A stretch of 64,000 nucleotides of DNA from Halioglobus sp. (GTDB taxonomy: Bacteria; Pseudomonadota; Gammaproteobacteria; Pseudomonadales; Halieaceae), in contig JAGRIH010000021.1 of the NCBI GenBank assembly GCA_020443345.1, positions 45,018 to 109,017 on the forward strand, read 5' to 3'. The translations under genes were made by a program, and so were the position numbers. This document shows positions 12,542-52,263 of this stretch, in pieces. The notes beneath the pieces were generated by a model. It did no database searches and was not told the DNA's origin. It saw only the letters and a list, made by a program, of their open reading frames with translations. Within the stretch, counting starts at the first letter, position 1, and every line of letters starts with the position of its first letter.

Positions 12542-13201
12542 TCAACCCTGTACGGCTTTATCGACACAGACGCTGGCGTCCGTCAACCACGCGTTGAGCA
12601 CCCCGGTCAATTCCCTCTGGCCGCTGTGTTTGAGCGCGGAAAACAGTTGTACGCTCACCAGTTCCCCATGGGTTTCGAGCGCGGAGGCCACCTGCAGCAA
12701 CGCGGCGGCGGCCTGGCCTCTGCTGAGTTTATCCGCCTTGGTCAGCAGAAGATGCACCGGCATGGTCGCATGCAGCGCCCAGTTCAGCATCTGCTGATCG
12801 AAGGGCTGCAGCGGGTGGCGCGCATCCATGACCAGGACCAGCCCGCGCAGGCTCTCGCGCCTTCGCAGGTAATTTTCCAGTTGCCTGGTCCATTCCCGTT
12901 TGACCGCCAGGGGTACTTGGGCAAAACCGTAGCCCGGCAGGTCCACCAGCCGCTGGTTGGCGCCGAGGCTGAAAAAGTTCAAAAGTTGTGTCCGGCCGGG
13001 CGTTTTGGATGTCTTTGCAAGCTTCTTGTTCCCTGTTAAGCTGTTGATTGCACTCGATTTTCCGGCATTTGAGCGGCCGGCGAAGGCCACTTCCCAACCG
13101 CTGTCCTGCGGGCACTGCGAGAGTTTACTGGCGCTGACCAGAAATCGTGCACAGCGGTAATTGGGAACTTTGGGATCAGAGCCTTGATCAAAGTCAGTCA
13201 T
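12542..13201 (-). CDS. engB: ribosome biogenesis GTP-binding protein YihA/EngB
   Basis: [12 protein letters not shown] (G1), DLPGYG (G3), TKADK (G4). ORF 12542..13288 trimmed to ATG 13201 (MTDFDQ...). Confidence 0.95.
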
Positions 13202-35928: not shown

Positions 35929-35939
35929 GCGGGAGTGAA

Positions 35940-36869: not shown

Positions 36870-36905
36870 GGAACTCGCCCGAGCGTGGCGGCGGGCGGTA
36901 CTGGC

Positions 36906-37940
36906 ATGACTGACGCCGGCCGTGTGCTGGTGGTCGGGCCATCCTGGGTCGGCGATATGGTGATGTCCCAGGTGCTGTTCATCGCTCTGCAGCAGGCGCG
37001 TCCCGGCGTGCAGATCGATGTGCTGGCGCCGGCCTGGAGCGAACCGCTGCTGCAGCGCATGCCGCAGGTACAGCGCGCCATCGAGCTGCCCGCCGGCCAC
37101 GGCGAACTGGCGCTGGGACGCCGCTGGCGGCTCGGCCGCCAACTGCGCAGCCAGTGCTACTACCAGGCCATCGTGCTGCCCAACTCACTGAAATCCGCGC
37201 TGGTGCCGCTCTTTGCCGGTATTCCCCGGCGCACCGGCTGGCGCGGTGAAATGCGCTACGGCCTGCTGAACGACCTGCGCATCCTGGACCAGACAGCGCT
37301 GCCGCTGATGGTGCAGCGCTTTGCCGCGCTGGGTCTGGATGCGCACGCGGCGCTGCCCCACGAACTGCCCCAGCCGCTGCTGGTGGTCGACGCCGAGGCG
37401 GCGCGAGAGTGCGCCGCGCGGCTCGGCCTGCACCCCGATAAACCGATATTGGCACTGTGTCCCGGCGCCGAATTCGGCTCCGCCAAGCGCTGGCCGGTAG
37501 AATACTACGCCGATCTGGCCCGCCACTATCTGGCGCGGGGCTGGCAGGTGGCCATTTATGGTTCCGCCAATGACCGCCCGGTGACTGCGCCGATCCGGCG
37601 CGGGAGCGGCGCTGACCCGCACTGTCGCGACCTCGCCGGGCGCACCGCCCTGGCCGAGGTGGTGGACCTGCTGTCCCTGTCGGCCGCGGTGGTCAGCAAC
37701 GATTCGGGGCTGATGCATATCGCGGCGGCCCTGCGGCGACCGCTGCTGGCGATATACGGGCCGACCTCGCCGTCGTTCACACCGCCGCTGAGCGCCGCTG
37801 CCGCGCTGTTGGTCAGCGATATCGAATGCGCTCCCTGTTTTGCGCGCGAGTGTCCACTAGGCCACCATCGCTGCATGCGCGAGACCCCGGTGGAATTGGT
37901 CGTGCAGCGCCTGGACGCCCTGCTGGCGGAGCGTTCCTAG
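36906..37940 (+). CDS. waaF: ADP-heptose:LPS heptosyltransferase II
   Basis: GT9 pattern VLVVGPSWVGDMVMSQ...SNDSGLMHIAAAL. Position matches glnE-ilvE-waaF synteny. Start at ATG 36906. Confidence 0.88.
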   Translation: MTDAGRVLVVGPSWVGDMVMSQVLFIALQQARPGVQIDVLAPAWSEPLLQRMPQVQRAIELPAGHGELALGRRWRLGRQLRSQCYYQAIVLPNSLKSALVPLFAGIPRRTGWRGEMRYGLLNDLRILDQTALPLMVQRFAALGLDAHAALPHELPQPLLVVDAEAARECAARLGLHPDKPILALCPGAEFGSAKRWPVEYYADLARHYLARGWQVAIYGSANDRPVTAPIRRGSGADPHCRDLAGRTALAEVVDLLSLSAAVVSNDSGLMHIAAALRRPLLAIYGPTSPSFTPPLSAAAALLVSDIECAPCFARECPLGHHRCMRETPVELVVQRLDALLAERS

Positions 37941-38947
37941 TGCGCGTGCTGGTGGTCAAGATGTCCTCCCTGGGGGATGTCATCCACACGCTGCCGGCAC
38001 TGGGCGATGCGGCCCGCGCCATGCCGGACATTGCCTTTGACTGGGTGGTGGAAGAGGCGTTCGCGGAGATCCCCGCCTGGCATCCAGCGGTGCGTGAGGT
38101 CATACCCGTGGCCCTGCGCCGCTGGCGCAAGCGGCCCCTGCGTGCCCTGCGCGGGCCCGAGTGGCGCCGGGCCCGCGCCGCGCTGCGCCGGCAGCGCTAC
38201 GACGTGGTGATCGATGCCCAGGGCCTGCTCAAGAGCGCGTTTATCGCGCTCCAGGTGCGCTCGCCGCGCTGCGGTATGGACTGGCGCTCCGCGCGCGAAC
38301 CCCTGGCCAGCCTGGCCTACCGGCGGCGGATCGCGGTGCCGAAAGACCTGCACGCGGTGGAGCGCACCCGGCTGTTGTTTGCCCGGGCGCTGGCCTACCC
38401 CGCGCCGGTCACACCCGCCGACTACGGCCTGCGCGCCGCCTTTGCCGAGGGCGCCGGCGATGCTGCCGCGCAGCCGCCGCACCTGCTGCTGTTCCACGGT
38501 ACCGCGCGGGCGGAGAAACTGTGGCCGCGCGCGCACTGGGTGGAGCTGGCGCGCCTGGCCGGCCAGCGCGGCTATACCTCGTGGCTGCCCTGGGGCAGCG
38601 AGCTGGAGTATGAGCGGGCCAGCGGTATCGCGGCCGCTGCGGGGGACTGCGCCCGGGTACTGCCGCGACTGGACCTGCGGGGCCTGGCGGACCGGCTGCG
38701 GCAGGTGCACGCCGCGGTCGCGGTGGACACGGGTCTGGGCCATATGGCGGCGGCGCTGGATGTGCCCGCGGTGTCCCTGTACGGCCCCACGGACACGCGC
38801 CTGATCGGCGCCTACGGCCGCCGCCAGGTGCATATACAATCGCCGCTCAAAGCGGTTGCCGCGGCTGATCCGCAGGCCTCGATGGCGGCCATTACACCGG
38901 CACAGGTGTGGCGCGAACTGCAAACCCTGCTGCCAGCGCCCGACTGA
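37940..38947 (+). CDS. waaC: ADP-heptose:LPS heptosyltransferase I
   Basis: VRVLVVKMSSLGDVIHTLPA...VDTGLGHMAAAL. GTG 37940 overlaps the waaF stop (TAGTG). Confidence 0.88.
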   Translation: MRVLVVKMSSLGDVIHTLPALGDAARAMPDIAFDWVVEEAFAEIPAWHPAVREVIPVALRRWRKRPLRALRGPEWRRARAALRRQRYDVVIDAQGLLKSAFIALQVRSPRCGMDWRSAREPLASLAYRRRIAVPKDLHAVERTRLLFARALAYPAPVTPADYGLRAAFAEGAGDAAAQPPHLLLFHGTARAEKLWPRAHWVELARLAGQRGYTSWLPWGSELEYERASGIAAAAGDCARVLPRLDLRGLADRLRQVHAAVAVDTGLGHMAAALDVPAVSLYGPTDTRLIGAYGRRQVHIQSPLKAVAAADPQASMAAITPAQVWRELQTLLPAPD

Positions 38948-38949
38948 CC

Positions 38950-40095
38950 GTGCGCCTGGCCTGCCTGTTGTACAAGTACTTTCCCTACGGCGGCATGCAG
39001 CGCGACTTCCGCCGGTTCGTGGAAGAGCTGCACGGTCGCGGTCATCACTGTCGCGTGTACTATCTGCAGTGGCAGGGCGATGCGCTGCCCGGCGCCGAGC
39101 TGCGCCGGGTGCCGGTGTCCGCGCTCACCAACCACCGCCGCAACGAGCGCTACCTGCGGTGGGTGCGCGAAGACCTCGCCGCCGATCCAGTCGACGGCGT
39201 GATCGGCTTCAATAAAATGCCCGGCCTGGATATCTACTTCGCCGCGGACTCGTGCTACCTGGAAAAGGCGCACGAGGACCGCAGCTGGCTGTACCGGCGC
39301 GGCGCGCGCTTCAAACATTTTGCGCACTACGAGCGCGCCGTGTTCGCGCCCGCCAGCGCGACCGAGATCCTGTTGATTTCCGAGCGGCAGCGCAGCAGTT
39401 TCCGCCGCTGCTACCACACTCCGGAGCAGCGCCTGCACCTGCTGCCGCCGGGAATTGCGCAGGATCGCCGCGCGCCGCCCGACGCCGCCGCGCGGCGCGC
39501 GGCCAAACGGGACAGCCTGGGCCTCGCCAGCGGGCAGCTCGCGCTGCTGCTGGTTGGCTCCGGCTTCATCACCAAGGGGCTGGACCGCGCCATCGCCGCG
39601 CTGGCCCGGGTGCGCGCGGCGCAGCCGGGTGCCGACGCGCGCCTGCTGGTGGCGGGCCAGGACCGCAGCCGCCGCTTCCAGCGCCTGGCCAGACGGCTGG
39701 GGGTGGGCGCCGCCGTGAGTTTCCTGGGCGGTCGGGACGATGTGCCGGACCTGCTGCTGGCGGCGGACCTGCTGGTCCACCCGGCGCGGCACGAGGCCGC
39801 CGGCATGGTCCTGCTGGAGGCACTGGTGGCCGGGCTGCCCGCGATAGTCACCGACGTGTGCGGCTATGCGCCGCATGTGCAGGCCGCGCGCGGCGGCATC
39901 GTGCTGTCCTCGCCCTACCGCCAGGAGCAGCTGGAAGCTGCCATCCTGCGCACTGTCGATGGCGTGTTCCGCGCCGAGTGCCGCGCCAGCGCCCTGACCT
40001 ACGCCGAACAGACGGACCTGTACTCCATGCACCGCACCGGTGCGGCCCTGATCGAGTCGCTGCTGCGGCGCAAACAGGCGGCGGCAGGTGACTGA
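38950..40095 (+). CDS. waaG: LPS core glycosyltransferase (GT4, WaaG-like)
   Basis: LLYKYFPYGGMQRDF N-terminus typical of WaaG, and the GT4 C-terminal EAAGMVLLEALVAGLP. Start at GTG 38950. Confidence 0.85.
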   Translation: MRLACLLYKYFPYGGMQRDFRRFVEELHGRGHHCRVYYLQWQGDALPGAELRRVPVSALTNHRRNERYLRWVREDLAADPVDGVIGFNKMPGLDIYFAADSCYLEKAHEDRSWLYRRGARFKHFAHYERAVFAPASATEILLISERQRSSFRRCYHTPEQRLHLLPPGIAQDRRAPPDAAARRAAKRDSLGLASGQLALLLVGSGFITKGLDRAIAALARVRAAQPGADARLLVAGQDRSRRFQRLARRLGVGAAVSFLGGRDDVPDLLLAADLLVHPARHEAAGMVLLEALVAGLPAIVTDVCGYAPHVQAARGGIVLSSPYRQEQLEAAILRTVDGVFRAECRASALTYAEQTDLYSMHRTGAALIESLLRRKQAAAGD

Positions 40096-40939
40096 GTACT
40101 ATCTCAGGGAGGATATGGCCGCCGGCGAACTCGCGGCAGTGACCGGGGCCGCGCAGTTGCTGCAGTGGGGTGCGCGGATGGCCGACGGCGCCGCGCCCGG
40201 CGATGTCTACCGGCACCGCGAAGGGCGCAAGACACTGCGCTGCCACTGGCGGGGTCGGCCTTTTTTCCTGAAGCTGCACAGCGGCATCGGCTGGCGGGAA
40301 ATTGCCAAAAACCTGCTGCAACTGCGCGCGCCGGTGCTGGGGGCGGCCAATGAATACCGCGCGGTGAGGGCGCTGGAAAGGCTGGGCGTGGACACGCTGT
40401 CAGTGGCGGCCTACGCCTGCCGCGGCCGCAATCCCGCCACCCGGCAGTCGCTGCTGCTGAGCGATGAACTGGTGGGCACGGTCAGCCTGGAGGAGTACTG
40501 TGCCGATTGGGCCAGCGCGCCGCCGCCCCCGGACATTCGCCTGCGCTTGCTGTGCAAACTGGCGGACACCGCGCGCCGCATGCACGGCGCGGGCATCAAT
40601 CACCGGGACTTCTACCTGTGCCATTTTCACCTGGATCCGGCGACCCTCGAACGGCCCCGGCCGCGCTGTCACCTGATCGATCTGCACCGGGCGCAGTTGC
40701 GCCGGTGCGTGCCGCGGCGCTGGCGTGTCAAGGACCTGGCCGGACTGTATTTCTCCGCCATGGACTGCGGTCTGAGTCGGCGCGATGTGCTGCGTTTTAT
40801 ACGCCACTACAGTGCGGGCGGGCTGCGCGCGGCACTGGGTGAGCAGGCGGGCTTGTGGCGGGATGTGGAGCGTCGCGCACTGCAGCTGTACCGCAGGGAT
40901 CACCGGCGCGAGCCGCCCGCCGGTCCGTGGCAGCGCTGA
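40088..40939 (+). CDS. waaP: LPS core heptose(I) kinase
   Basis: Collinear with P. aeruginosa WaaP as I remember it: GIGWREIAKNLL, PPPPDIRLRLL, GINHRDFYLCHFHLD, IDLHRAQ. Overlaps the waaG stop. Confidence 0.9.
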   Translation: MTEYYLREDMAAGELAAVTGAAQLLQWGARMADGAAPGDVYRHREGRKTLRCHWRGRPFFLKLHSGIGWREIAKNLLQLRAPVLGAANEYRAVRALERLGVDTLSVAAYACRGRNPATRQSLLLSDELVGTVSLEEYCADWASAPPPPDIRLRLLCKLADTARRMHGAGINHRDFYLCHFHLDPATLERPRPRCHLIDLHRAQLRRCVPRRWRVKDLAGLYFSAMDCGLSRRDVLRFIRHYSAGGLRAALGEQAGLWRDVERRALQLYRRDHRREPPAGPWQR

Positions 40940-40947
40940 TGGTATTC

Positions 40948-41748
40948 TCAGAACGCCGCATAGTCCGCGCGCTGCGCCTGTTTGGCCCGCATGCGCCGCA
41001 TCGCGGTGTCGTAGGCCGCCCGCGCCAGAAGCCTGCTCTCCACCGGCTCCAGTGCGGGCATCTGGCGCGCCCAGGCTTGAAAAAAACGCCAGCGGTCGCT
41101 GCGCGATAGCTGGTGCGCGGGCAGCATGTTCAGCTGCACCAGGTTTTTCAGCAGCAGCTTGCCGGGCACCTCCCGGTGGCGCGAGTTACTCTCGTTGTCG
41201 ATAAAGGTGAACCGGTAGCGCTCGCCCTGCCGGTCCGCCAGGATATTGCCGGGACGCAGGTCACCGTGGACAAAGCCGCTGCCGTGCAGCCGTCCCACCT
41301 GGGTGCCCAGCGCGCGCAGGAATGTGCGGCGTCGGTCGGCGGCACCGGCGTCGGCGAAGCGGCGCAGCCACTGTGGTACCGGGTCGCCGGGTACGAGGCG
41401 GGTGAACAGGTACTCGGCGCCGCCCGGGGTGCGGCCCCACAGCACGTTGACCGGAGCCGGGAAACCGCAGTGCAGCAGGGCGTCGCTGTTGTCGCGGGCG
41501 CGCCTGCCGCGGCCCCCGCGCAGCAGCGCCTTCAGCCTCTCCGGCCAGCCGCGTGGCAGAAATGCCTTGTAGTACAGCGCCCGCTGTGGATTGCAGGCGA
41601 CCACGGCAAAGCGCGAGCTGTCGACATAGTGCCAGCCCGCGACTTCCTGCCGCGCACTCAGCGGCGGGGCCAGCAGCACCAGCTCCGCTTCCGGCTCACT
41701 GCTCACTGGTGCGCGCCGCGACCCGGCGCAGCGCAGTTGCGGCTGCAT
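40948..41748 (-). CDS. LPS kinase (Kdo/WaaP/InaA family) paralog, inverted orientation
   Basis: GRLHGSGFVHGDLRPGNILA catalytic loop, FTFIDNE. Confidence 0.75.
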   Translation of the reverse strand: MQPQLRCAGSRRAPVSSEPEAELVLLAPPLSARQEVAGWHYVDSSRFAVVACNPQRALYYKAFLPRGWPERLKALLRGGRGRRARDNSDALLHCGFPAPVNVLWGRTPGGAEYLFTRLVPGDPVPQWLRRFADAGAADRRRTFLRALGTQVGRLHGSGFVHGDLRPGNILADRQGERYRFTFIDNESNSRHREVPGKLLLKNLVQLNMLPAHQLSRSDRWRFFQAWARQMPALEPVESRLLARAAYDTAMRRMRAKQAQRADYAAF

Positions 41749-41768
41749 AAGACCGGGCGGGTCTGGTG

Positions 41769-41777
41769 TGAGATAAT
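41769..41777 (+). promoter_or_regulatory. extended -10 promoter element (TGaGATAAT)
   Basis: Lies in the 62-bp divergent gap between the two kinase paralogs. Conserved in the diverged second copy at 49780-49788. Confidence 0.35.
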
Positions 41778-41810
41778 GACATCGAAGGCAGTTTACTCAT
41801 GTGATCCGGG

Positions 41811-42629
41811 TTGTGGCGGGATTGTGCAGTCGTGACAGCGTCTATTGACAACATCAACACCGCGGCTTCGGAAGGCGCGCCATTGACCTGTCTCGGCGCG
41901 GCCGATGCCGCCACCGAACAGACATTTCGAGAAAAATGCACGGTTCTAAAGACAGGCACCGGCAGTTACGCGGGCCTGTTGCACATCGGTGGTGGCGGTG
42001 AAACGCTGTTCGTAAAATGCTACCTGGCCAAGCATAGCATTGCCCGACTCGCGGGCAAACTGGCGCTGGGCCGCGGCTACACCGCGCGCGCCGCCATGCG
42101 CGCGCTGGCCGGGCGGCTGCGCGTGCCCGCAGAGCGCGGCCTGGTCAGGAACCGTCGATCCGGCAATATCTACCTGTTCAGCGAACACCTGGCCGGCACT
42201 GATCTTGCGCAGTTGTATCGCGGGGGGGAACTGGCGGAACCGGTCCTGCGGCCGCTGCTGTGCCTGGCCGGGGAGTCGCTGGCGCGCATGCACGAGGCGG
42301 GCTGGGTGCACGGCGACTTCAAGTGGGGCAACCTACTGGTCGAGCAGGTACAACCGCCGCGGCTGGCACTGCTTGATTTCGATGGCGCCGGGCGCAGCCG
42401 GCGGGCCGTGCGCCGCGGGCGGGATGTGGCGCGCTTTATCGTCAATGCCGAGGACTACCGCGTGCCCGAGGTGCTGGCGCGGGTGTTTCTGGACGCCTAC
42501 GCAGCGGCGCGCCCGATGAGCGCCGCGCAGGTGCTGTCGCAGGCGGCGCCGGCCCTGCGCAAGCTGCGGGCCCGGCACGATCGGAAATACGGCTTGAGAG
42601 AGGTGGAACTGTTTCATGGGGAGTTCTGA
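41811..42629 (+). CDS. LPS kinase (Kdo/WaaP/InaA family) paralog
   Basis: MHEAGWVHGDFKWGNLLV catalytic loop, LLDFDGA. The start is ambiguous (TTG 41811 or GTG 41832). Confidence 0.75.
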   Translation: MWRDCAVVTASIDNINTAASEGAPLTCLGAADAATEQTFREKCTVLKTGTGSYAGLLHIGGGGETLFVKCYLAKHSIARLAGKLALGRGYTARAAMRALAGRLRVPAERGLVRNRRSGNIYLFSEHLAGTDLAQLYRGGELAEPVLRPLLCLAGESLARMHEAGWVHGDFKWGNLLVEQVQPPRLALLDFDGAGRSRRAVRRGRDVARFIVNAEDYRVPEVLARVFLDAYAAARPMSAAQVLSQAAPALRKLRARHDRKYGLREVELFHGEF

Positions 42630-42666
42630 GCCGCTAAAGCTGTACTGGTCATCCAGCAAACCGAAT
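42491..42666 (+). repeat. direct repeat, left copy (DR-L)
   Basis: 176 bp, identical to 49829-50004 apart from 3 mismatches by manual alignment. Covers the kinase 3' end and the first 17 codons of the pyruvyl transferase. Confidence 0.95.
42616..42666 (+). pseudogene. truncated 5' fragment of the polysaccharide pyruvyl transferase gene
   Basis: MGSSEPLKLYWSSSKPN is identical to the start of 49954..50736. The reading frame then diverges into unrelated sequence (ORF 42616..42837). Confidence 0.85.
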
Positions 42667-42873
42667 CTTGCCGTTCCACTCGTTGCGGGTACTGCGTACT
42701 GCGGCCTGAGGTGCTTCTGGCGGTGTAAGAAGGTCTGCTCGATGTCGTGTACGGCGCGCACATTGCTGCCAGCCCTCAGAGGACGGGCGGGACACACCAT
42801 ACTGTTCATCGATCGCGAGGGCAGGCTTACAGGATAATTTGCTTCCCCATCACGGGAGCTGCAGGTTAGAAAG

Positions 42874-43959
42874 TTAGAAATAAACGTGGGCCTGGAGGAA
42901 GTATTCCTCACCATCCGGGTACAGCGGGTCATCGCTGTCCCGCAGCCGCACCACGGCGCGCAACTGGGTGTGAGACCAGGGAAAATATTCCCAGACGAAG
43001 CTCGCGCGTTTTCTATCGCGATCCTCACCACTGAAGCTCTGGTGTTCAAGAGAAAGCTTAAGATTTTGCCCCTTTACTACCAACCAGTTTGCTTCAAGCA
43101 GAGCGATATCCATTTCGGTATCTGATGCGAGCCTGTCGTCGTCCTCGATCTGGTCATACTCCAGCAACCAGGTCACCGGACCGGTATTGAGTCCTGCGAA
43201 GATGCCGATCAGCTTCCGGTCCACCAGGTCCGTATCGTTATAGCCCGCGCTCACGCCGAGTTGCCCCCAGCCGTCAAGCCAATTGCCGCGAAACATCACC
43301 CACTTGCCATCGTCCACCTCACCGCCCCCGCCCGAGCCGTTGGTAACGGACAACTGCGCCTGGATATGGTGTGTATCGTAACCCAGTTCCACGCCATTAT
43401 CCGGCGTCGAGAAAGTGACGCCGCTGGCCTGTCGCACGAATGCCGTGTCATCCTGTAACCGCCAACCGAAGGGAAGGAAAATCTTTCCCCCTTTCAGATA
43501 CCAGTCCTTCCTCTGGATCTTGACCCAACTCTCCCGATTGATGGAGCCGCCGGGCGCGACTTGCTGGTCAACATAGAGGGCCAGGTACTGGTTGAGCTGC
43601 AACCGGCCATAGAGGGTTACCGCATCGGTGGTGAATTCCAGGTTGCTGTCGACATTGTCCACGTCAAACTGCCGGGCGCTGTAGCGCGCGTTACCGCCAA
43701 GGCGCAGGCCATCGAATACTGCGAAATCCGGCTCCACGGCTTTCTCGGTCAAGGGCCTTACAGAGAGAACGGATGCGCCATAGGCACTGCCGAAAGCCGT
43801 GCGCATGCCGCCGCCTGTGGGGTTGACATGGCATACGTTGCACTCATTGCCGGTCCGGACTGACAGGTAGGGTTCCGCCCGAGAGAGCCCCGCATACAGC
43901 GTCAACAGTAGGACGGCCACTGGCGCTGTGTGCCTGACAAAAGGCAACGTCGGCATCAA
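42874..43959 (-). CDS. predicted outer-membrane beta-barrel protein with N-terminal CxxCH heme motif (fused cytochrome-porin architecture)
   Basis: Signal peptide (...LLLTLYAGLSRAEP), CNVCH 12 residues after the predicted cleavage site (encoded at 43828-43842), alternating amphipathic strands and a C-terminal ...QAHVYF. Confidence 0.6.
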   Translation of the reverse strand: MMPTLPFVRHTAPVAVLLLTLYAGLSRAEPYLSVRTGNECNVCHVNPTGGGMRTAFGSAYGASVLSVRPLTEKAVEPDFAVFDGLRLGGNARYSARQFDVDNVDSNLEFTTDAVTLYGRLQLNQYLALYVDQQVAPGGSINRESWVKIQRKDWYLKGGKIFLPFGWRLQDDTAFVRQASGVTFSTPDNGVELGYDTHHIQAQLSVTNGSGGGGEVDDGKWVMFRGNWLDGWGQLGVSAGYNDTDLVDRKLIGIFAGLNTGPVTWLLEYDQIEDDDRLASDTEMDIALLEANWLVVKGQNLKLSLEHQSFSGEDRDRKRASFVWEYFPWSHTQLRAVVRLRDSDDPLYPDGEEYFLQAHVYF

Positions 43960-45890
43960 TTGTTCTCCGCCCCGGCATCAATCCACTCCCGCACGGACTG
44001 TATCTGGCTGTTGCTCAGCGGTGCACCGCCCAGGGGCATGCGCGAACCGACGGGAGCCGTACCCTCCAGCTTTTGGACGATCAAACTGTTGTTGGCATCT
44101 CCCGGTAACACCCGGGTGAGCGCCGGGTTTTGCGAGCTGGGGACGTTGACCAGATTATCGAAGGCCTGGCCCTGGGACAGGTTCATGCCCGCCGCAGGAG
44201 CGGCTCCGGTGTGGCATCCGGACACGGCGCACGAGTTGTTGAATATCTGGGTCTGAATTTCCGATAGGGTCGTTGTTTCAGGCTCCGGCTCCGGCTCCGG
44301 TTCCGGTTCGGGGGGCGTGGCAAGTGTAAAGGTGACTATCGCGTCTCCACCTCCGGTGCCGTCCCGGTCACCATCCAGCACGCGCCCCTGCACGTCGGTA
44401 AGGGGAGTGCCACCAGTACCCAAGACCGTGAGCTGATAGGTGTCATCCATCGCAGCGACGCCGGTAAAATCCAGCTCGACGGAATTGTCCTCCACCAGCA
44501 CGTTGACGTGACTTATCTCCATCTCATTGCCGTCACTGAAGGAACCGTCACCGCCGCTGGCCAGCAACTGGAATTGTCCGGCCTCCGGCTCGAGAGGCGC
44601 GGCATTGAAGTTAAGCTCAATGGAGGTGGGAAAGCTGTTCACGACGGCACCGTTTGACGGTACCGTGGAGTTGACAAGAAACCGCCCGGAACCCATTTGC
44701 GAGTTGTCGGGCACTATCTGACCCCGCATCGCGCCCTGTGGAAACGCGGGTGTATAGACCTCTGCGTACAATCCCTGATTGCGCAGCGCGCGGGACAGGC
44801 CTTCGGTCAGCGCCGTATCCACGGCGAACCAGTGACTCAAGTTCTGCACGTCCTGCTCTAACGCAATGGCTATGGGGCCGCGCTGGCCGAGCGGCGCCTG
44901 GCGAATGGCGGCACCGGTTGCATCATCGGCCCCGCTGTTGTTCAGGTGAAAGCTGGCGCTGGACTCGCTAACCTGCAGCGTCAATGCCAGCAGTCCGCTG
45001 ACCCCGCTCGTCGATGGCGGTACCACGTCGCCGGGGCTGAGATTGGTGAACATTATCTCCACGTTCTCGCCGGGTAACTGGCCGCGCACTTCACCACCGG
45101 GGTGTTCGGGCGAGTGTACGTTGACGTAGTAATAACCGTTATCCAGGTCCGCCAGATCCTCCGCATCCAACACCTGATGCGCTGCAAACCAGTGGTCCGC
45201 GTTGTCGACATCCTGTGTGAGTTGGATTACCACAGGTCCGTTGACCCCTGCCAGCGCGCGATGGATATGGCTGGCGGTAGCGTCTTGCAGCCCGACCGTG
45301 GTAACGTGGATAGTCAGCTCGGTGGCCTCGGGGCTCAGGGTAATCGCGGCGCGGCCCATCGCAGTGGTATCGACCACCGGCACTTCCTGGCTGCCGGATA
45401 GCTGCAGAAATCGAACGCGTACATCCCCGATAACGATCTGACCGCGCAGCGCGCCGTCCGGCAGTCCCTCGGTGACAACCAGCAAATACAGGCCGCCGGC
45501 CTCCAAAGCCGCCAATTGCGTTTCATCGAGTACAGTGTCCTCGGGCAGCATCCACTGAGTATCGTTGCTGGCGTCCAGTTCGATTTCTACCGGGCCTGAC
45601 TCCCCGGCCAGACCCCGGCGCAGCTGTACCGCCGTGGCGGTCAGCCCCTGCAGATCGACGGTTCCCTGCAGCGTATCGGTGTCGAGATCCAGTTCAAACT
45701 CGGCGGAGGCGCTGGCACCGCTGGAACTCCCCGCCACCACCTGCATGGCGTCAAGCTGTACCTCGATGGTCATGGTATTGGCCGGCTGGGTGTTTGAGTT
45801 GTTATTGTTACCACCATTATTGCAACCGGAGACCAGGGCGATCGTCGCTAAAATCAGTGCCGCTACTAATTGAATTGCATATCGAATCAT
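43956..45890 (-). CDS. lipoprotein with three CHRD domains, an Ig-like domain, a (PE)n linker and a C-terminal cytochrome-c-like (PSCyt-type) domain
   Basis: Lipobox LVSGC. The canonical CHRD repeat is LSGSQEVPVV...ASHIHRALAGVNGPVVIQL...YYVNVHSPEHPGGEVRGQL, flanked by two degenerate repeats ending ...ALRGQIV and ...AMRGQIV. PPEPEPEPEPEPE linker. C-terminal IFNNSCAVSGCHTG...MPLGGAPLSNSQIQSVREWIDAGA. Its stop overlaps the start of the downstream barrel gene by 4 nt. Confidence 0.7.
   Translation of the reverse strand: MIRYAIQLVAALILATIALVSGCNNGGNNNNSNTQPANTMTIEVQLDAMQVVAGSSSGASASAEFELDLDTDTLQGTVDLQGLTATAVQLRRGLAGESGPVEIELDASNDTQWMLPEDTVLDETQLAALEAGGLYLLVVTEGLPDGALRGQIVIGDVRVRFLQLSGSQEVPVVDTTAMGRAAITLSPEATELTIHVTTVGLQDATASHIHRALAGVNGPVVIQLTQDVDNADHWFAAHQVLDAEDLADLDNGYYYVNVHSPEHPGGEVRGQLPGENVEIMFTNLSPGDVVPPSTSGVSGLLALTLQVSESSASFHLNNSGADDATGAAIRQAPLGQRGPIAIALEQDVQNLSHWFAVDTALTEGLSRALRNQGLYAEVYTPAFPQGAMRGQIVPDNSQMGSGRFLVNSTVPSNGAVVNSFPTSIELNFNAAPLEPEAGQFQLLASGGDGSFSDGNEMEISHVNVLVEDNSVELDFTGVAAMDDTYQLTVLGTGGTPLTDVQGRVLDGDRDGTGGGDAIVTFTLATPPEPEPEPEPEPETTTLSEIQTQIFNNSCAVSGCHTGAAPAAGMNLSQGQAFDNLVNVPSSQNPALTRVLPGDANNSLIVQKLEGTAPVGSRMPLGGAPLSNSQIQSVREWIDAGAENN
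44281..44310. repeat. hexanucleotide tandem repeat (GGCTCC/GGTTCC, 5 units) encoding the PE linker
   Basis: ggctcc ggctcc ggctcc ggttcc ggttcg, read directly from the sequence. Confidence 0.9.
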
Positions 45891-46126
45891 GGTCGGGATC
45901 CTCGGCAGGTTTAACTGTAAGTGCCCGCGGCGCCGACCGAAGGTTCGATTAAAAAAAAGTTTCGGGGCTTTGAACCCCCGATCCGGTAAGGAGTACTCAC
46001 AGGATAGGGAATCCGAGCTTTAGGGTGACAACAAAACAGTTGTTACCGGCGATTTGAACTTTTTCCCGATTGGCGGATACTGTGGATACTAGTGTTGGAA
46101 GTGGGTAGCTGTCGGCTATACGTGCG

Positions 46127-46726
46127 ATGTCCGAACTGAACAGCCAGGCGGCTGCCGAGGACCGCCACCATAGGGAACTGCTGGCACGCACCGCCAGGGG
46201 TTCTGTCGAGGCTTTTAACGAACTCTACACCCTGCTCTATACGCCCCTGGTGCGTTTCCTCTACCGCTTTACTCAGTCCAGCGCACTCGCCGAAGAAATT
46301 CTGGACGACACCCTGATGGTGGTCTGGCAAAAGGCCGGCACTTTTCGCGGCGACTCCCGCGCTTTGACCTGGGTGCTGGGCATTGCCGGCCGCAGAGCCT
46401 TGAAATCGGTGCGACAGGAGCGCCATTGTGCCAGTCCGCGAAACTGTCTGTTTCCCGGATCGACCGCTGCGAACGAGTTGTCGCAGTTGGCGACGCGAGA
46501 AGCGCTGGAATGGGCATTGCAACAGCTCAATACAGAACAACGCCTGGCGATTGAAATGGCATACTTTCACGGTTTGAATTGCGAGGAGATTGCATCAGTA
46601 CTGGGCTGTCCGCTCAATACGGCTAAAACACGACTGCACTATGCCCGCCGTCGATTGCGCAAGATATTCGGCAGTGCCGGGGAACCGCTCGACTTCGCTG
46701 ACCTCGACGAGGCAATGGCGCCATGA
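46127..46726 (+). CDS. ECF (group 4) RNA polymerase sigma factor
   Basis: Region 2 (FNELYTLLYTPLVRFLYRFT...AEEILDDTLMVVW) and region 4 HTH (LNTEQRLAIEMAYFHGLNCEEIASVLGCPLNTAKTRLHYARRRL). Confidence 0.9.
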   Translation: MSELNSQAAAEDRHHRELLARTARGSVEAFNELYTLLYTPLVRFLYRFTQSSALAEEILDDTLMVVWQKAGTFRGDSRALTWVLGIAGRRALKSVRQERHCASPRNCLFPGSTAANELSQLATREALEWALQQLNTEQRLAIEMAYFHGLNCEEIASVLGCPLNTAKTRLHYARRRLRKIFGSAGEPLDFADLDEAMAP

Positions 46727-47412
46727 CCAGCAAGTTGAACAGAATCAGTCACCGGCAGGTGGTGGACGCGCTACCGGCATTTATCCGCGGCAAACTCAGC
46801 AGCGAGTTGCAGCGTCAAATACAGGCACACATTGTCAATTGCACCGCCTGCGCCAGCCTGCATCGTCAGGAGTTAAACTTGAGTGGCCTGATCTGTGAGC
46901 CGATGGCGGGCGAAGAAATACTGCTTACCTCGCAGCGGCGCGAGACGAACAGGATGCGCCTGATGCAGCGCATCAAGCAAAATCCGTCGCACCCGGGCGC
47001 AGCGCAGGACAACCAGTGCGTATCGAGCATGCGGTCTAGATTTCCCCGGGTAGTAAGCGTTGCCGCCAGCATGGCAGCAGTGGTTCTGGGCGGCATGCTC
47101 TGGGTGCAATACAGTTATTCCCCAGCGCCGGAAAGCGGGGCAACCTACCTGACCAGATCCTCAATCACCGCACCGCAAACCGCTCCCACCGACGATACCT
47201 ACCGGGTAGTCTTTCAACCGGAGGAAACCCCAGACAGTATTCGTCACTTACTGAGCGTACTGGAGGCGGAGGTGATCAATGGCCCCTCGGCGACCGGGGT
47301 GTACACCCTGGCGTTTAGCCAACCGGCATTGAGCAATGAACAGCGACTGGCGCAGTTGCGCCGGGAGCCCGCCATTTTGTTGGCAGAAAGAAGTGTACAT
47401 CGGGATCGGTAG
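46723..47412 (+). CDS. anti-sigma factor (zf-HC2, single-pass membrane)
   Basis: ATGA overlap with the sigma gene, HIVNCTAC (H-x3-C-x2-C), TM helix VVSVAASMAAVVLGGMLWV and an extracytoplasmic tail of about 85 aa. Confidence 0.8.
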   Translation: MTSKLNRISHRQVVDALPAFIRGKLSSELQRQIQAHIVNCTACASLHRQELNLSGLICEPMAGEEILLTSQRRETNRMRLMQRIKQNPSHPGAAQDNQCVSSMRSRFPRVVSVAASMAAVVLGGMLWVQYSYSPAPESGATYLTRSSITAPQTAPTDDTYRVVFQPEETPDSIRHLLSVLEAEVINGPSATGVYTLAFSQPALSNEQRLAQLRREPAILLAERSVHRDR

Positions 47413-47437
47413 GCAATCTCCGCATGCATTTTGGCGA

Positions 47438-48694
47438 ATGTTGGCAGTCCTTGTGCCAGTTCTGTGCGCATGTTTGGCCAGTGCCTGCCAGCACCACGCA
47501 CCACTATCCGCCTCCGACCGGGCCTCCCAGTCACCCAGGCTGTTACTCACTTTCACCCAGAGTGCCGACAAAACCTCCGGCTTAGTGAACAGTTTCAGCG
47601 GGAACTACTTTCGCAGCTACTGGGCTGCTCCGTTGATAACTCAGCACCGGATTATTCAAATTGAGAGGGACTACCCGCTCGTAGAGCAGGAGGGCTGGGA
47701 AATCGAAGCACTGGGAGTTTATTGTGTACTGTTCACCCTGCAACCGGGGGCGGATGCGGCCACCCAGTTGCAGCGACTGCGTCAGGACGAGCGGGTGGAG
47801 AGCGCGCAGTTACTCCAACTATACCAAACCCGCGCCGCCACCGCCTACAACGACCCCTACTTCAGCATCCAGTACGGCGAGGCGCGGGCCTATATCCAGC
47901 AACTTCACCAGTGGTCGACGGGAAAGGGGGTGGATGTGGCGATTATCGATACCGGCGTGGACATTGGCCACCCGGATCTGCAAAGCCAGATCTTCAATAC
48001 CCAGGTGTTCGTTGCCGGCGATTCGGACGACTTCCGCCACGACATTCACGGCACCGCGATGGCCGGAATTATCGCGGCCTCCGCCAACAATGGCACCGGC
48101 ATCGTTGGCCTGGCTCCGGACGCCCGTCTCTGGGTATTAAAAGCCTGCCACCAGCTCCACAGCCGTTCCAGTGTAGCACAGTGCGACAGTTTCACTCTGG
48201 CCAAGGCGCTGAACTACGCTATCGTTCGCAATGTAGACGTACTCAATCTCAGCCTGTCCGGCCCCTATGACCCACTCATCGACAGGTTGATTCAGCGGGC
48301 GCTGAATAAAGATCAGATCGTGGTTGCAGCAGATCCCGGGCGGGGAGCAGACCGATATCCGGCTTTGATAGATGGCGTGCTCGCCGCCAGAGAGGCTCCG
48401 CCGGGACAGGGCATGACCAGCCGCATGGCCGAGCCCATGGTGGTGGTCACCCCCCAGACAGAATTGCTGAGCACGGGGCCGGGCGGCGGCTATGACTTTT
48501 TTACAGGGTCGTCCAATGCGGCGGCTCTGGTCAGTGGGTTGGCGGCCGTGCTTCTCCAAAATAGCAGGGAATGGGCGCCACAGGTGCGGGTGAACTGGAT
48601 CCAGCAGGCGCTGAGGATGGAGCAGCACTGGGTGTCGTTGAACCAGCCGGGGGTTGGAGATCTCGCGGGCTACAAAGACCTCCGGCGACCGTAA
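47438..48694 (+). CDS. S8-family (subtilisin-like) serine peptidase, secreted or lipoprotein-like
   Basis: Catalytic triad contexts VAIIDTGVDIGHPDL (D), HGTAMAGIIAA (H) and GSSNAAALVSG (S). Hydrophobic Cys-containing leader MLAVLVPVLCACLASAC. Start set at ATG 47438. Confidence 0.85.
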   Translation: MLAVLVPVLCACLASACQHHAPLSASDRASQSPRLLLTFTQSADKTSGLVNSFSGNYFRSYWAAPLITQHRIIQIERDYPLVEQEGWEIEALGVYCVLFTLQPGADAATQLQRLRQDERVESAQLLQLYQTRAATAYNDPYFSIQYGEARAYIQQLHQWSTGKGVDVAIIDTGVDIGHPDLQSQIFNTQVFVAGDSDDFRHDIHGTAMAGIIAASANNGTGIVGLAPDARLWVLKACHQLHSRSSVAQCDSFTLAKALNYAIVRNVDVLNLSLSGPYDPLIDRLIQRALNKDQIVVAADPGRGADRYPALIDGVLAAREAPPGQGMTSRMAEPMVVVTPQTELLSTGPGGGYDFFTGSSNAAALVSGLAAVLLQNSREWAPQVRVNWIQQALRMEQHWVSLNQPGVGDLAGYKDLRRP

Positions 48695-48702
48695 TCACTA
48701 CC

Positions 48703-49419
48703 ATGCACCCCGGCCATGCGGCGGCATTATCGATACTGGTGATCACGAAACTGGCCGGCCCGCAGCAAGTGACTGCCGGCGAGCTCGTCTCCACCGGTAG
48801 TATCGGTCTCGCCAGTGGCCAGGTGTACCGGGGCATCGCCCTGGCCAGGGAGACTCTGGTCCCCAACATCAACGTCGCGCTGGAACACAGTTCGGGTGTG
48901 TATGCCCGAACCTGGCTGACCCGGGTGCAACTGGCGGGCCTGGCTTATCCGTCCGACGAAAGCACCTGGCAAACGCTACTGGACGTAGGCTATCTCTGGC
49001 AGTTGCAATCCCACTGGACGATTTCAGCCGCCCACCACTGGTATCACTACAGCGAAAACACCCGTGGGAGTGATCGCGACTATCGCGAATGGTCGGCCAG
49101 CCTGGACTATGGCGCCTACCTGACCCTCAACTACGCCTATACAAATGATTTGTGGGGGCGCGACCTGCGTCAGGACGTAACCACGCTCAGCGGCCGCTGG
49201 CCATTCACTCAGCGCCTTGTTGGCGAGGCCGCCGTCGGCTGGGTCAGCCAGCACGGTCAGCGTGGAGACAGCTACAGTTTCCTGCGCCTCAATGCCGGTT
49301 GTGTGATTCGCGACTGGAGTTTCCAGTTGCAGTTTCATACCACCCACAATGTCGACGGGTACTACCGCAAGAGCCGCATCGGCAATCAGTGGATCGCCCA
49401 GATGGATTGGCACTGGTAG
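48703..49419 (+). CDS. predicted outer-membrane beta-barrel (Gcw_chp/TIGR02001-like)
   Basis: SGQVYRGIALA..PNINVALEHSSGVYARTW resembles the SDYvfRGisq...G.Y.g.W start of that family. Alternating strands and a terminal ...AQMDWHW. The signal peptide is weak. Confidence 0.5.
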   Translation: MHPGHAAALSILVITKLAGPQQVTAGELVSTGSIGLASGQVYRGIALARETLVPNINVALEHSSGVYARTWLTRVQLAGLAYPSDESTWQTLLDVGYLWQLQSHWTISAAHHWYHYSENTRGSDRDYREWSASLDYGAYLTLNYAYTNDLWGRDLRQDVTTLSGRWPFTQRLVGEAAVGWVSQHGQRGDSYSFLRLNAGCVIRDWSFQLQFHTTHNVDGYYRKSRIGNQWIAQMDWHW

Positions 49420-49523
49420 GTGCTGGTCTGGCCGCCGTGGCCGGACCTGGAAGAAGTGCGGACTGAGGACTTCACCCCGCGACGCACCACTGAATTGGGA
49501 TAGATGGCGGGCCTGACCGATGA

Positions 49524-49690
49524 ATTCGGGAAGTGCAACTACCCGATGAGTCCGGTAGCAATTTTGACCGGGTATTGCGCGTGCTCGATTATCTTCAGCT
49601 CACCACGAAGCACCAGGTGGCGAAACCGGTGAACTGGAAAACAGACGAATATCGCATCATCGTGCCATCGCCGACTCCCGCGCACTCAGC
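49524..49690 (+). pseudogene. C-terminal fragment of a 1-Cys (Prx6-type) peroxiredoxin
   Basis: SGSNFDRVLRVLDYLQLTTKHQVAKPVNWKTDEYRIIVPS resembles the TGRNFDEILRVxDSLQLTxxxxVATPVNWKxGDxVMVxP C-terminal region. An in-frame stop lies just upstream and there is no N-terminal catalytic part. Confidence 0.55.
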
Positions 49691-49703
49691 GGCGAGGCCC
49701 GCC

Positions 49704-49967
49704 CCGGCTCACTGCTCATTGGCAGCTGCATCGAATCGGTGTCACTGTTGCGGTTTCATAAGACCGGGCATGTCGGCTGTGAGATAATGCTATTAAAGAC
49801 ATTTTACCTATATGGTCCAACTTATGGTGGATGCCTACGCAGCGGCGCGCTCGATGAGCGCCGCGCAGGTGCTGTCGCAGGCGGCGCCGGCCCTGCGCAA
49901 GCTGCGGGCCCGGCACGATCGGAAATACGGCCTGAGAGAGGTGGAACTGTTTCATGGGGAGTTCTGA
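49704..49967 (+). pseudogene. remnant of the LPS kinase locus: diverged promoter region plus the 3' end of the kinase gene
   Basis: 49704-49807 is a diverged copy of 41701-41796, including the first codons of the minus-strand kinase and the TGaGATAAT element. 49829-49967 is the last 46 codons of the + kinase. The body of the gene is missing. Confidence 0.8.
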
Positions 49968-50004
49968 GCCGCTAAAGCTGTACTGGTCATCCAGCAAACC
50001 GAAT
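49829..50004 (+). repeat. direct repeat, right copy (DR-R)
   Basis: Matches 42491-42666 with 3 mismatches. Confidence 0.95.
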
Positions 50005-50736
50005 GTCGGCGACTGGCTCTCGCCGCGGATTGTGCAGGCGCACACCAGCCGCGAGGTGGTACACGCGTCTGCCAGGCGCTGCGAATTCATGGCGATCGGC
50101 AGCATTCTGCACAAGGCGAAAAATTTGCCCTTCTCGCCGCGGCTGAGCGTGTGGGGCAGCGGCTACATGCACGATGGCCCCCCGGTAAAACTGAAACACC
50201 GCGTACACGCGGTGCGCGGCCGCCTGACAGCGGCACGCCTCAAGAACCACTGCGATCTGCCCTGCGGTGACCCCGGCCTGCTGGCGGCGCGGGTTTTTCC
50301 CCACTGCGCCGCTGCGCCGGTGCCGGGTCGGGTGGGCGTGGTGCCCCACTATACCGATCGCGACGAGCCGGCCGTGCGGCGTTTCGTCGAGCGCGTACCG
50401 GGTGCGCTCGCCATTGACATATTCGATGATGTGGAGGGGTTCCTGTGCAAACTCACGACCTGTTCTTTCGTGTTGTCCTCCAGTCTGCACGGCCTCATTC
50501 TGGCCGACGCCTTCAATATTCCCAACCAGTGGATCCGCTTGTCCGACCGGGTCGAGGGGCGGGATTTCAAGTTTTATGATTACTACAGCGTATTTGACCT
50601 GGCGCCGCCGCAATTCGCCGACCTGGAGCAGGTGGGCCGGGCAGAAATCGAGAGGCTGCAGCGCGACTACCGGCGCCCGGGCCTGGAAGCGGTCTGTGAT
50701 GCCCTGGCCGCGGCGTTTCCCGCGGAGTATCGGTAA
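49954..50736 (+). CDS. polysaccharide pyruvyl transferase family protein
   Basis: N-terminal ...SSSKPNVGDWLSPRIV (NxGDxLS motif) and C-terminal SSSLHGLILADAFNIP. Confidence 0.75.
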   Translation: MGSSEPLKLYWSSSKPNVGDWLSPRIVQAHTSREVVHASARRCEFMAIGSILHKAKNLPFSPRLSVWGSGYMHDGPPVKLKHRVHAVRGRLTAARLKNHCDLPCGDPGLLAARVFPHCAAAPVPGRVGVVPHYTDRDEPAVRRFVERVPGALAIDIFDDVEGFLCKLTTCSFVLSSSLHGLILADAFNIPNQWIRLSDRVEGRDFKFYDYYSVFDLAPPQFADLEQVGRAEIERLQRDYRRPGLEAVCDALAAAFPAEYR

Positions 50737-50760
50737 CTGCCGCCCAACGCCCGGTGGCGT

Positions 50761-52263
50761 TTAGCGCGCCCGGGTGGCGACAATGCGGACATCGCCGTGG
50801 CGCCCGCCCTCGAAGACGACAATCTCGTGCAAGCCGTGGCGTTGTAAAAAAGTACGCCAGCGCGCTGCATCCGGCGGCCGCACCAGCATGGCCAGATAGT
50901 CCCGGCCGCCCCAGAATGCATCGTCCGACAGCATGCTCCACATGTCGAAGCGCTTGCGTGAAGCACTGTCCCACTCGATATCGCGACCACTGAAATAGGC
51001 GATGTAGCGTTCGTTGGTGACTAGCGTGGCGTGCTCCGGGGTATTTTCAGCCAGCCACAGCGTGGCATCGCGGATAAAAATCTTTTCGCTTCTGGCATTG
51101 TCCAGGCTGTCCAGCACAAAGGCCAGCAACAGGGCGGCAATGAGCAACTTCACCCAGGTGCGGCCGCTGTTCTGCCACAGTGCGTTGAGAACAAAGGGTA
51201 CGTAGAGCAGGGCGAAGATGACCAACTGATTGCTGTAGCGTTCCAGCATAAAGCGGTTGATCAGGGTGAAGGCGAGCAGATAGCCGAGGCTAATCAACAG
51301 GTGCGCGTGGAGCAGGACCGCATCCTGCGGTCGAAACCGCGCCAGCAGCTTGTCCTTTGCGCCCCACAACAGCACCGCGACATAGGGCCAGGTCAGCGCT
51401 CGACCGATATTCAGCAACAGGATTGCCAGCAGGCCCGCCAGTACCGCCGCGATTCCGTCTTCCCGCGCGGAGCCGCGCAACAGCAGCTCTGCGTTGGCCG
51501 CTGCGAGCTGTGTCAGCTCGCCGGGAACGGCCAGCAGTCGCGTGACATGGACCCTGATACCGGGCAGTTGCAGTGGCTGCGGCAGTACGCTGACCACGAT
51601 TGCCGCGCCGATGCCCGCGACCACCAACACCGGCCATAACAGGCTCAGACCAAGCCGCAGTTTGTGCGGTTGGTCCTTGAGCAACAAAAGGCTCAGCGGC
51701 GCCAGTGCGGCGAAGAACAGTCCCTCGAAGCGAAACAGCGAGGCGAGCATCACACAGACCAGCCAGCCCAGCCGGTGTCGCCAGCGCGCGGTGCGCAGAT
51801 ACAACAGCAGTTGCCGCAGCGACAGCACGATGAAGGCCCAATAGGCCGGGTCGCGGACGATGGAACTGCGGTAGTCGTTCAGCATGGGGTGGGACAGTAC
51901 GACGACGGCGGCAAACAACTGCACCCGGCGGTCGCCGCCCAGCGTGTGCACGGTGGCGACAAACGCCGCGCAAAACAGCGCGTAGAACAGCGAATTCAGT
52001 AACTGTCCCGCCCACTCCAGCGGCAGCCCGGTCCACTTGTGCAGCAGCGCGAAGCAGATGGAAATCAGCGGGCGATCAAACAACTGTTGGCTGGCCACAA
52101 AGCCGTCGCGCAGGTAGGCATCGGCACTGCGCAAGTATATGATGGCATCGCGGTTGAGCAGCGGGTCGATGGCGATCAGCCATCCGGACAGCAACAGGCT
52201 GGCCAGTACGATCCAGCGGTAATCGATGGGGGCCATGGCCGCTGCGGCGGGATTATTGTGCAC
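50761..52263 (-). CDS. integral-membrane glycosyltransferase (GT39/GT83, ArnT/PMT-like) with C-terminal soluble domain
   Basis: About 11 hydrophobic segments and an N-terminal loop NRDAIIYLRSADAYL..., as in PMT_2-type enzymes. LPS locus context. Confidence 0.6.
   Translation of the reverse strand: MHNNPAAAAMAPIDYRWIVLASLLLSGWLIAIDPLLNRDAIIYLRSADAYLRDGFVASQQLFDRPLISICFALLHKWTGLPLEWAGQLLNSLFYALFCAAFVATVHTLGGDRRVQLFAAVVVLSHPMLNDYRSSIVRDPAYWAFIVLSLRQLLLYLRTARWRHRLGWLVCVMLASLFRFEGLFFAALAPLSLLLLKDQPHKLRLGLSLLWPVLVVAGIGAAIVVSVLPQPLQLPGIRVHVTRLLAVPGELTQLAAANAELLLRGSAREDGIAAVLAGLLAILLLNIGRALTWPYVAVLLWGAKDKLLARFRPQDAVLLHAHLLISLGYLLAFTLINRFMLERYSNQLVIFALLYVPFVLNALWQNSGRTWVKLLIAALLLAFVLDSLDNARSEKIFIRDATLWLAENTPEHATLVTNERYIAYFSGRDIEWDSASRKRFDMWSMLSDDAFWGGRDYLAMLVRPPDAARWRTFLQRHGLHEIVVFEGGRHGDVRIVATRAR

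Follow-up and report, generated by a model that had tools for sequence, protein, structure and literature searches.

A 64,000 nt stretch of contig JAGRIH010000021.1 (positions 45,018 to 109,017, hereafter the window), a metagenome contig from an uncultured Halioglobus of the family Halieaceae whose sequence is identical to ENA contig ERZ27309265 k141_725237, carries a six-gene cassette of foreign composition (42874-49419) in the middle of a lipopolysaccharide (LPS) core locus. The cassette lies between the third of the WaaP-family LPS kinase genes (termed k3; the second is termed k2) and a pyruvyl-transferase-like gene (termed PT). The junction of k3 and PT is present on both sides of the insert, and because of this duplication both genes remain intact. 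We tentatively favour, with a little less than even confidence, a history in which recombination brought the cassette in from a lower-GC relative, with duplication of the junction and, later, loss of the spare kinase copy by deletion.

The insert is flanked by a 177 nt direct repeat, delimited both by alignment and by a repeat finder, whose left copy (42490-42666, plus strand) and right copy (49828-50004, plus strand) are offset by 7338. The copies differ by three substitutions (42494 C/T, 42513 C/T and 42594 T/C in the left and right copy, respectively), which corresponds to 98.3% identity or 1.7% divergence, and the borders are sharp, with homology stopping abruptly on both sides. A first-pass annotation of the sequence had described direct repeats with the same offset and three substitutions, and this description holds, with the repeat now 177 nt long and starting at 42490 and 49828. 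It had also proposed that the left copy completes an intact kinase and that the right copy starts an intact transferase behind a kinase remnant. This is what we find: the left copy comprises the 3′ end of k3 (its last 45 codons and the stop codon) as well as the ribosome-binding site and the initial 17 codons of PT, and the right copy, which follows the remnant, runs seamlessly into PT. At the DNA level, the 177 nt segment gives only a poor alignment with the orthologous region of a distant relative, the Halioglobus metagenome-assembled genome JBDXFZ010000139.1 (termed L011). The 98% identity of the two copies therefore reflects recent common origin or gene conversion rather than constraint.

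The duplication is larger than this repeat, a point that the first-pass annotation missed. Adjoining the right repeat is a degenerate copy (49658-49830; blastn E = 2e-20) of 41625-41819, which covers the beginning of k2 (minus strand, ~30 codons) together with the k2-k3 intergenic region. This copy is 67% identical to its counterpart over 171 alignment columns (33% divergence), and it is damaged by stop codons, a 2 nt frameshift and a 15 nt deletion. The matches are distributed in patches and include four perfect runs of 12-17 nt, which were reached in none of 20,000 shuffles. The copy is also AT-shifted, exhibiting 26 GC-to-AT changes versus 7 in the opposite direction and a GC content of 0.55 compared with 0.66 in the counterpart. 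It meets the right repeat through a 2-3 nt microhomology (GG/TGG, 49828-49830), and at this joint the right-hand kinase copy lacks everything between a point shortly before its start codon and codon ~219. Thus, 41625-42666 is represented again at 49658-50004, minus an internal deletion of ~670 nt. The whole duplicated segment reaches from k2 codon ~30 to PT codon 17 (~1,040 nt), with one copy intact and the other gutted. Any model for the origin of the insert must cover three facts: the direct duplication, the presence of 33% divergence beside 1.7% divergence, and a deletion joint located exactly where these two parts meet.

Because the stretch itself comes from a metagenome contig, and the right repeat contains breaks or gaps in some assemblies, one could suspect that the repeat and insert are a chimeric join made in a single metagenome assembly. 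This explanation, which the first-pass annotation had singled out for checking against reads, is effectively refuted. More than 20 contigs, drawn from many samples and assembled by two different pipelines, reproduce both insert junctions and contain 0-11 mismatches per 11-21 kb. Several of these filled-site contigs span both junctions and the rest cross one, and the structure is unchanged in all of them.

The cassette differs in composition from its surroundings. The GC content at third codon positions (GC3) of its genes is 0.66-0.75 (mean 0.71), compared with 0.81 (sd 0.04) in the 46 other genes of the window (Mann-Whitney p = 6e-6), and its codon-usage distance is likewise higher (p = 1.6e-4). 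The tetranucleotide distance of the cassette is 24.9, whereas most 7-kb windows score 8.5-12. The early impression that the insert uses more A/T-ending codons than the LPS genes is borne out by the GC3 and k-mer values. Comparison with related genomes, which had been proposed as a way to find an empty site, led to L011, the sole genome locus with a k3-related gene that was fetched. This locus has a syntenic glnE-ilvE-waaF-waaC-waaG-waaP ... k3-PT-k2(-)-rmlD-rmlB arrangement that lacks the cassette, and its PT orthologue (59% identity) begins within a few bases of the end of its k3 orthologue (38-40% identity). The adjacency of k3 and PT in L011 identifies this order as the ancestral layout and the cassette as an insertion.

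The insert has no mobility gene. The cassette genes form two divergent groups, two genes on the minus strand and four on the plus strand, and the gaps between genes in the insert measure 207, 236 and 238 nt, the last being followed by the 173 nt host-like remnant. These gaps are so small that they leave no room for a mobility gene. Scans with Pfam, NCBIfam and PHROGs revealed no recombinase, integrase or transposase among the six cassette genes or the junction open reading frames (ORFs), and the PHROGs scan gave no phage-type or mobility match of any kind. No tRNA was found at the insert. Terminal inverted repeats are likewise absent, the best end-to-end inverted match being 8 nt, the same as in shuffles. 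The first-pass claim that the insert lacks an integrase, transposase, tRNA and inverted repeats is confirmed by these tests. Furthermore, a PADLOC scan identified no defence system, returning only generic subtilase-family matches to the S8 peptidase of the cassette, and an Rfam scan matched no RNA family. The non-coding flanks to the left (42667-42873, GC 0.59) and right (49420-49657, GC 0.57) of the cassette show no homology to the other fetched loci of the cassette or to the rest of the window.

The six genes occur in unchanged order in at least four other, unrelated neighbourhoods in marine Gammaproteobacteria. These are represented by L012 (JGI; cassette at 3491-10172), with an IS240-type transposase fragment as neighbour; L013 (NCBI GCA_976553675.1; 6456-13071), with cytochrome P460 and short-chain dehydrogenase genes; L014 and L024 (Logan/ENA; 907-7377 and 1391-8165), with SapC and DUF2784 genes; and L025 (ENA and NCBI; 6904-12927), with a methyltransferase/kinase pair and a glyoxalase gene. 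This recurrence indicates that the insert is a self-contained, transferable functional module. The module has no characterised or structurally solved member. Its closest homologue is that of L012, with 45-66% identity for all six proteins. Neither a circular form nor a plasmid context of the cassette was seen in the five other fetched contexts, and none of the fetched contigs that carry the cassette elsewhere has an integrase beside it. In L012, a fragment of a DDE_Tnp_IS240 transposase (2937-3326) adjoins the TorF-like end of the cassette, which has a GC content of 0.61 compared with 0.52 in its flanks. These features suggest that the cassette in L012 was also horizontally acquired, possibly with the help of an insertion sequence (IS).

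One of the ~22-23 contigs that carry k3 or PT appears to have an empty site. In this 5,828 bp scaffold (WANG18 SAMN08389235 scaffold_7677, termed L009), k3 leads straight into PT via a single repeat copy, whose bases are left-type at all three single-nucleotide polymorphisms (SNPs) of the repeat. This is precisely the junction that the first-pass annotation had predicted for excision of the island by recombination between the repeats, but it is found in a single scaffold that could be mis-joined. To the left, 1,116 nt of L009 match the filled strains exactly, and to the right a single private SNP (53625) sets it apart from them over ~4.7 kb. We rejected the idea that L009 represents an ancestral lineage that was never filled, since it is near-identical to the filled strains while the repeats differ by 1.7%. 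Because L009 is closer to the filled strains than the repeats are to each other, it must derive from either a recent precise deletion via the repeats or an assembly mis-join, for which an identical stretch of 72-153 nt is available. We give roughly even chances to L009 being a real empty allele. As to whether the sample that yielded L009 also contains the island, a look-up of the TorF-like protein was uninformative, this sample being absent among the 10 sample blocks listed of at least 39.

Other contigs also vary within the repeat, which calls for caution over L009. In some scaffolds of the assembly series to which L009 belongs, the third SNP (42594/49932) is swapped, with T in the right copy of L002 and L007 and C in the left copy of L003 and L016. 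L003, from the same series, has a 100-N gap inside its right repeat. Moreover, a number of contigs break off within the repeat, at 49906/7 and at 49931 (just before the third SNP), and L033-L036 are further loci at which these SNPs or contig ends are seen. These patterns are compatible with genuine conversion of one copy by the other as well as with an assembler that collapsed the repeat.

The series of events that we favour would begin with an ancestral LPS-core layout in which k3 and PT overlapped and were co-transcribed. A fragment of a lower-GC relative, probably linear DNA, would have entered such a cell carrying the six-gene envelope cassette, with the donor's own k2′-intergenic-k3′ region at its right end. 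Integration would then have been carried out by host recombination functions rather than by an element-encoded enzyme. Specifically, the right end of the fragment would have recombined with the resident k3/PT region, such that everything to the right of the crossover would be resident sequence, identical to the left copy at the time of the event. The left end would have been joined illegitimately 51 nt into PT (codon 17) on another copy of the locus, thereby duplicating the k3 3′/PT 5′ junction. The redundant hybrid kinase copy may subsequently have lost its start and its first ~219 codons by a deletion at the 2-3 nt microhomology, the right end of which would have fallen inside the resident-type part. 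What remained would be a foreign intergenic promoter adjoining a relic ORF of 51 codons, which overlaps the start of PT. The two 177 nt repeats could now recombine with each other, whereby one copy could convert the other and the island could occasionally be lost with precision.

This import model fits the three facts named above in that 33% divergence beside 1.7% is consistent with a foreign segment joined to resident DNA. Also, the GC deficits of the two putatively foreign parts are parallel, amounting to 11 points in the intergenic copy (0.55 versus 0.66) and 10 points in the GC3 of the cassette (0.71 versus 0.81), as would follow from one lower-GC donor. No coincidence of borders is required. 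The first-pass annotation had read the locus as a foreign insert without mobility genes, which stands. Of the two origins that it offered, a plain Campbell-type crossover is weakened, and import from a relative by homologous recombination fits better.

Our proposal is a variant of a published mechanism for capture of DNA with one-sided homology, homology-facilitated illegitimate recombination during natural transformation (de Vries & Wackernagel 2002; Prudhomme et al. 2002; Meier & Wackernagel 2003), as presented in the account of PMC5361080 that cites these studies. This process has been proposed as the source of similar displaced gene remnants in immunity arrays of the Vibrio type VI secretion system (PMC5361080). 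As in our proposal, one joint is homologous and the other illegitimate, no enzyme of the element is involved, and gene remnants are left behind. Unlike in that process, the target in Halioglobus was duplicated (177 nt now, probably more at first) and not deleted, and the donor was not found. Johnston et al. (2013; PMC3784515) showed that duplications can arise when incoming DNA recombines with two sister copies of a locus, and that heterologous DNA then lies at the join. Such transformation-triggered merodiploidy, a tandem duplication by inter-chromatid integration, resembles our case in that one copy stays intact beside an altered one. However, the duplications concerned span 100-900 kb and need pre-existing IS-like repeats, whereas the duplicated segment here is ~1 kb or less.

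Two further models produce an insert between duplicated host sequences. In a Campbell-type event, a circle that combined the cassette with some 1 kb of host junction, from k2 codon ~30 through to codon 17 of PT, would have integrated by one RecA-mediated crossover, followed by internal deletion of the right kinase copy. The topology is exactly the segment-insert-segment order that this model predicts, in that the insert lies between direct copies of a contiguous host segment, both copies end at PT codon 17 and the right one begins in the k2 5′ end. As in a Campbell product, the interrupted genes are intact and no mobility gene is present, and recombination between the repeats would give a clean empty site; the L009 junction, if real, is the expected product of the reverse crossover. 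Yet this process opposes a chromosomal to a circle-borne allele at every position and predicts even divergence, whereas the copies diverge by 33% in one part and 1.7% in the other. The uneven divergence fits simple Campbell integration poorly and would demand a mosaic circle or later homogenisation of the 177 nt alone; in addition, the cassette is not known from any replicon, circle or plasmid. We regard this origin as unlikely. It is also unlikely that the arrangement stems from an old duplication in situ, in which the host segment from the k2 5′ end to the PT 5′ end was doubled with the cassette at the join, and the unused right copy then decayed through AT-biased mutation and a deletion while conversion kept 177 nt nearly alike. 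Decay would predict the 26:7 substitution bias towards A/T, and conversion patches would predict the patchy identity with its four perfect runs. The third-SNP swaps in both directions (L002 and L007; L003 and L016) fit ongoing conversion, but they may instead be assembler bubble collapse. Left unexplained by this model is why 177 nt were homogenised completely, as far as homology extends and over 37 nt that serve no function in the left copy, when a similarly short neighbour is 33% diverged. The clearly foreign GC3 of the cassette argues against great age as well.

Models that invoke a mobile element fare worse. An island that targeted the k3 3′ end, provided a replacement 3′ end and has since lost its integrase is highly improbable, even though direct repeats by which the target gene regains its 3′ end, an atypical composition and a discrete cargo module are classic features of integrase-borne islands. 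Neither a recombinase gene nor a fragment of one is present, there is no space for one and no tRNA, and the fetched contigs with the cassette elsewhere show no adjacent integrase. Unlike att sites, the repeat spans two genes and continues as diverged, host-like DNA upstream, and it is far longer than a typical att core. The insert likewise differs from an IS or composite transposon in having no transposase and no inverted repeats, and in being flanked by a duplication of 177 nt rather than a short one. A more far-reaching proposal is that the cassette and its captured junction form a recombinase-free mobile unit whose portable homology arm lets it enter and leave the k3/PT junction of related Halieaceae by RecA-mediated crossover, with filled and empty alleles in reversible equilibrium. 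We consider this very doubtful; if true, the retained foreign promoter and relic ORF would serve to keep the downstream LPS gene expressed, and any read-through from the cassette operon could place PT under the control of the cassette's extracytoplasmic function (ECF) sigma factor.

A number of observations weigh against the import from a lower-GC relative that we favour. Homology-facilitated illegitimate recombination usually deletes its target, and a duplication requires that the exchange be unequal or occur between sisters. Short stretches of gene conversion on an old in situ duplication could instead account for the patchiness of the intergenic copy. The GG/TGG match at the deletion joint is the sole visible microhomology, the left joint (42666/42667) being unscorable without the donor sequence. 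Protein, genome and JGI metagenome searches did not find a donor or sister-species locus. Specifically, a scan of 185,579 species genomes with k3 matched L011 alone (40% identity), and a search of 5.8 billion proteins returned k3 itself and only three matches at 37-41%. JGI metagenome scans with an empty-site pattern (22 nt unique to k3, 184 N and 24 nt unique to PT) and with the conserved intergenic promoter motif yielded no match. Finally, a consensus promoter scan did not call the k2-k3 intergenic site, and the promoter and coupling roles considered below are read from the sequence only.

The k2-k3 intergenic region (41749-41831) contains a promoter-like pair composed of the -35-like block AAGACC (41749-41754), a 17 nt spacer and the extended -10 element TGaGATAAT (41769-41777). 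Both blocks are perfectly kept in the two intergenic copies, where they account for two of the four perfect runs, and the spacer has changed. In the right-hand copy, the pair is followed by the 51-codon relic ORF (49812-49967, plus strand), which is called as a gene in metagenome contigs and whose frame was checked on the sequence. This ORF starts in the intergenic copy and shares the reading frame of k3 over the final 45 codons of that gene, and its end overlaps the start of PT exactly like that of k3 does. The PT ATG sits 14 nt inside k3, and its ribosome-binding site, GAGAGAGGTGGA, lies 9 nt upstream of the ATG. We infer that PT, which was severed from the k3 promoter, is kept expressible by the retained promoter blocks, the ribosome-binding site and the relic ORF. 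Also, no convincing terminator was found between the TorF-like gene and PT, and the plus-strand operon of the cassette, presumably controlled by its ECF sigma factor, might read through into PT.

Perfectly conserved blocks of 15-17 nt are present in the dead k2′ fragment as well (41691-41709/49704-49722 and 41647-41674/49675-49702). One of them contains a tandem CTCACTG CTCACTG in the intact copy. That these blocks persist in a pseudogene hints either at sites bound by a regulator ahead of the k3/PT promoter or at patches of gene conversion.

LPS loci are known for recombination mosaicism, and the case described here behaves like recombination-mediated capture of foreign DNA in such a locus, a tidy and fairly ordinary gene gain that involves no dedicated mobility enzyme. 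It offers a clean natural example of how a functional cassette can enter the middle of an operon without such an enzyme and leave its neighbours undamaged. The 177 nt repeats predict reversible loss of the island, and in uncultured marine bacteria, footprints of this kind can help to tell gene gain driven by recombination from gain driven by an integrase or transposase. The cargo, a six-gene envelope module that is widely conserved but uncharacterised and includes two outer-membrane barrels and a CHRD lipoprotein with haem-type motifs, may deserve more attention than its mode of arrival.

The minus-strand group of this module encodes a 360-residue predicted outer-membrane β-barrel (42874-43956), porin-like with a weak Porin_4 match, and a 644-residue CHRD-domain lipoprotein (43956-45890) with three Pfam CHRD matches (E = 1.7e-69). 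In the barrel, residues C39, C42 and H43 are invariant in six homologues, and a C-terminus ending in YF is found in five of the six, that of the window included. The resulting haem-type CxxCH motif (codons 39-43, 43840-43854) directly follows the signal peptide in all six aligned homologues; haem-binding outer-membrane barrels are unusual. The CHRD lipoprotein has 374 homologues, the best of which is 63% identical and which include ~1,050-residue forms in Woeseiaceae, and a sequence search of the PDB revealed no solved relative. Near its C-terminus (near 44150-44250), it has a CxxxxCH segment, CAVSGCH, which in one homologue is labelled cytochrome-c-like in the JGI annotation.

On the plus strand, an ECF-type sigma factor gene (46127-46726; Sigma70_r2, r4 and ECF matches) is followed by a zf-HC2 anti-sigma factor gene (46723-47412; domain matches), a gene for a 418-residue, subtilisin-like S8 peptidase (47438-48694; Peptidase_S8, E = 4e-28) and one for a putative porin of the TorF/Gcw_chp family (48703-49419; domain matches). 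The adjacent genes for an ECF sigma factor with regions 2 and 4 and for a zf-HC2 anti-sigma factor, alongside co-conserved envelope proteins, point to a putative cell-envelope system under the control of its own ECF sigma factor. Literature searches found no link of CHRD proteins or S8 peptidases to ECF sigma factors.

Among the host genes that flank the insert, k2 (40948-41748, minus strand) is intact, matches the Pfam Kdo family (E = 2e-9) and is called in all metagenome contigs. The intact k3 (41832-42629, plus strand) encodes 265 amino acids with Pfam Pkinase/Kdo matches, and its last 14 nt overlap the start of PT. The intact PT (49954-50736, plus strand) has a weak PS_pyruv_trans match and is 59% identical to the gene that follows k3 in L011. 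In the collection of 5.8 billion proteins, k3 is nearly an orphan (next best matches 37-41%), whereas PolA of the same organism, 100% identical to that of an NCBI Halioglobus metagenome-assembled genome, has its next matches at 92% (also a Halioglobus genome) and ~82%. This contrast marks k3 as a fast-evolving or rarely sampled member of the LPS locus. Some 10 kb upstream, the window encodes a TfpB-like type IV pilus assembly ATPase (31226-33001; NCBIfam E = 3e-271), which is no evidence of competence and would at most hint that DNA-uptake machinery might exist.

The waaF-waaC-waaG-waaP-k2-k3 block (~35000-42600) is itself unusual in composition. Its GC content is 0.68-0.73, compared with 0.63-0.65 elsewhere, and its tetranucleotide distance of 20.1 makes it nearly as deviant as the insert but in the opposite, GC-rich direction. 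The core-LPS block may itself have a different origin. A comparison of 8927-12372 in L011 with 40088-52263 in the window further reveals that L011 has an alpha/beta-hydrolase-like gene between waaP and k3, and that its k2 orthologue (49% identity) is found downstream of PT in reverse orientation, a position occupied in the window by a gene for a 500-residue membrane protein. The kinase genes have been rearranged within the genus Halioglobus.

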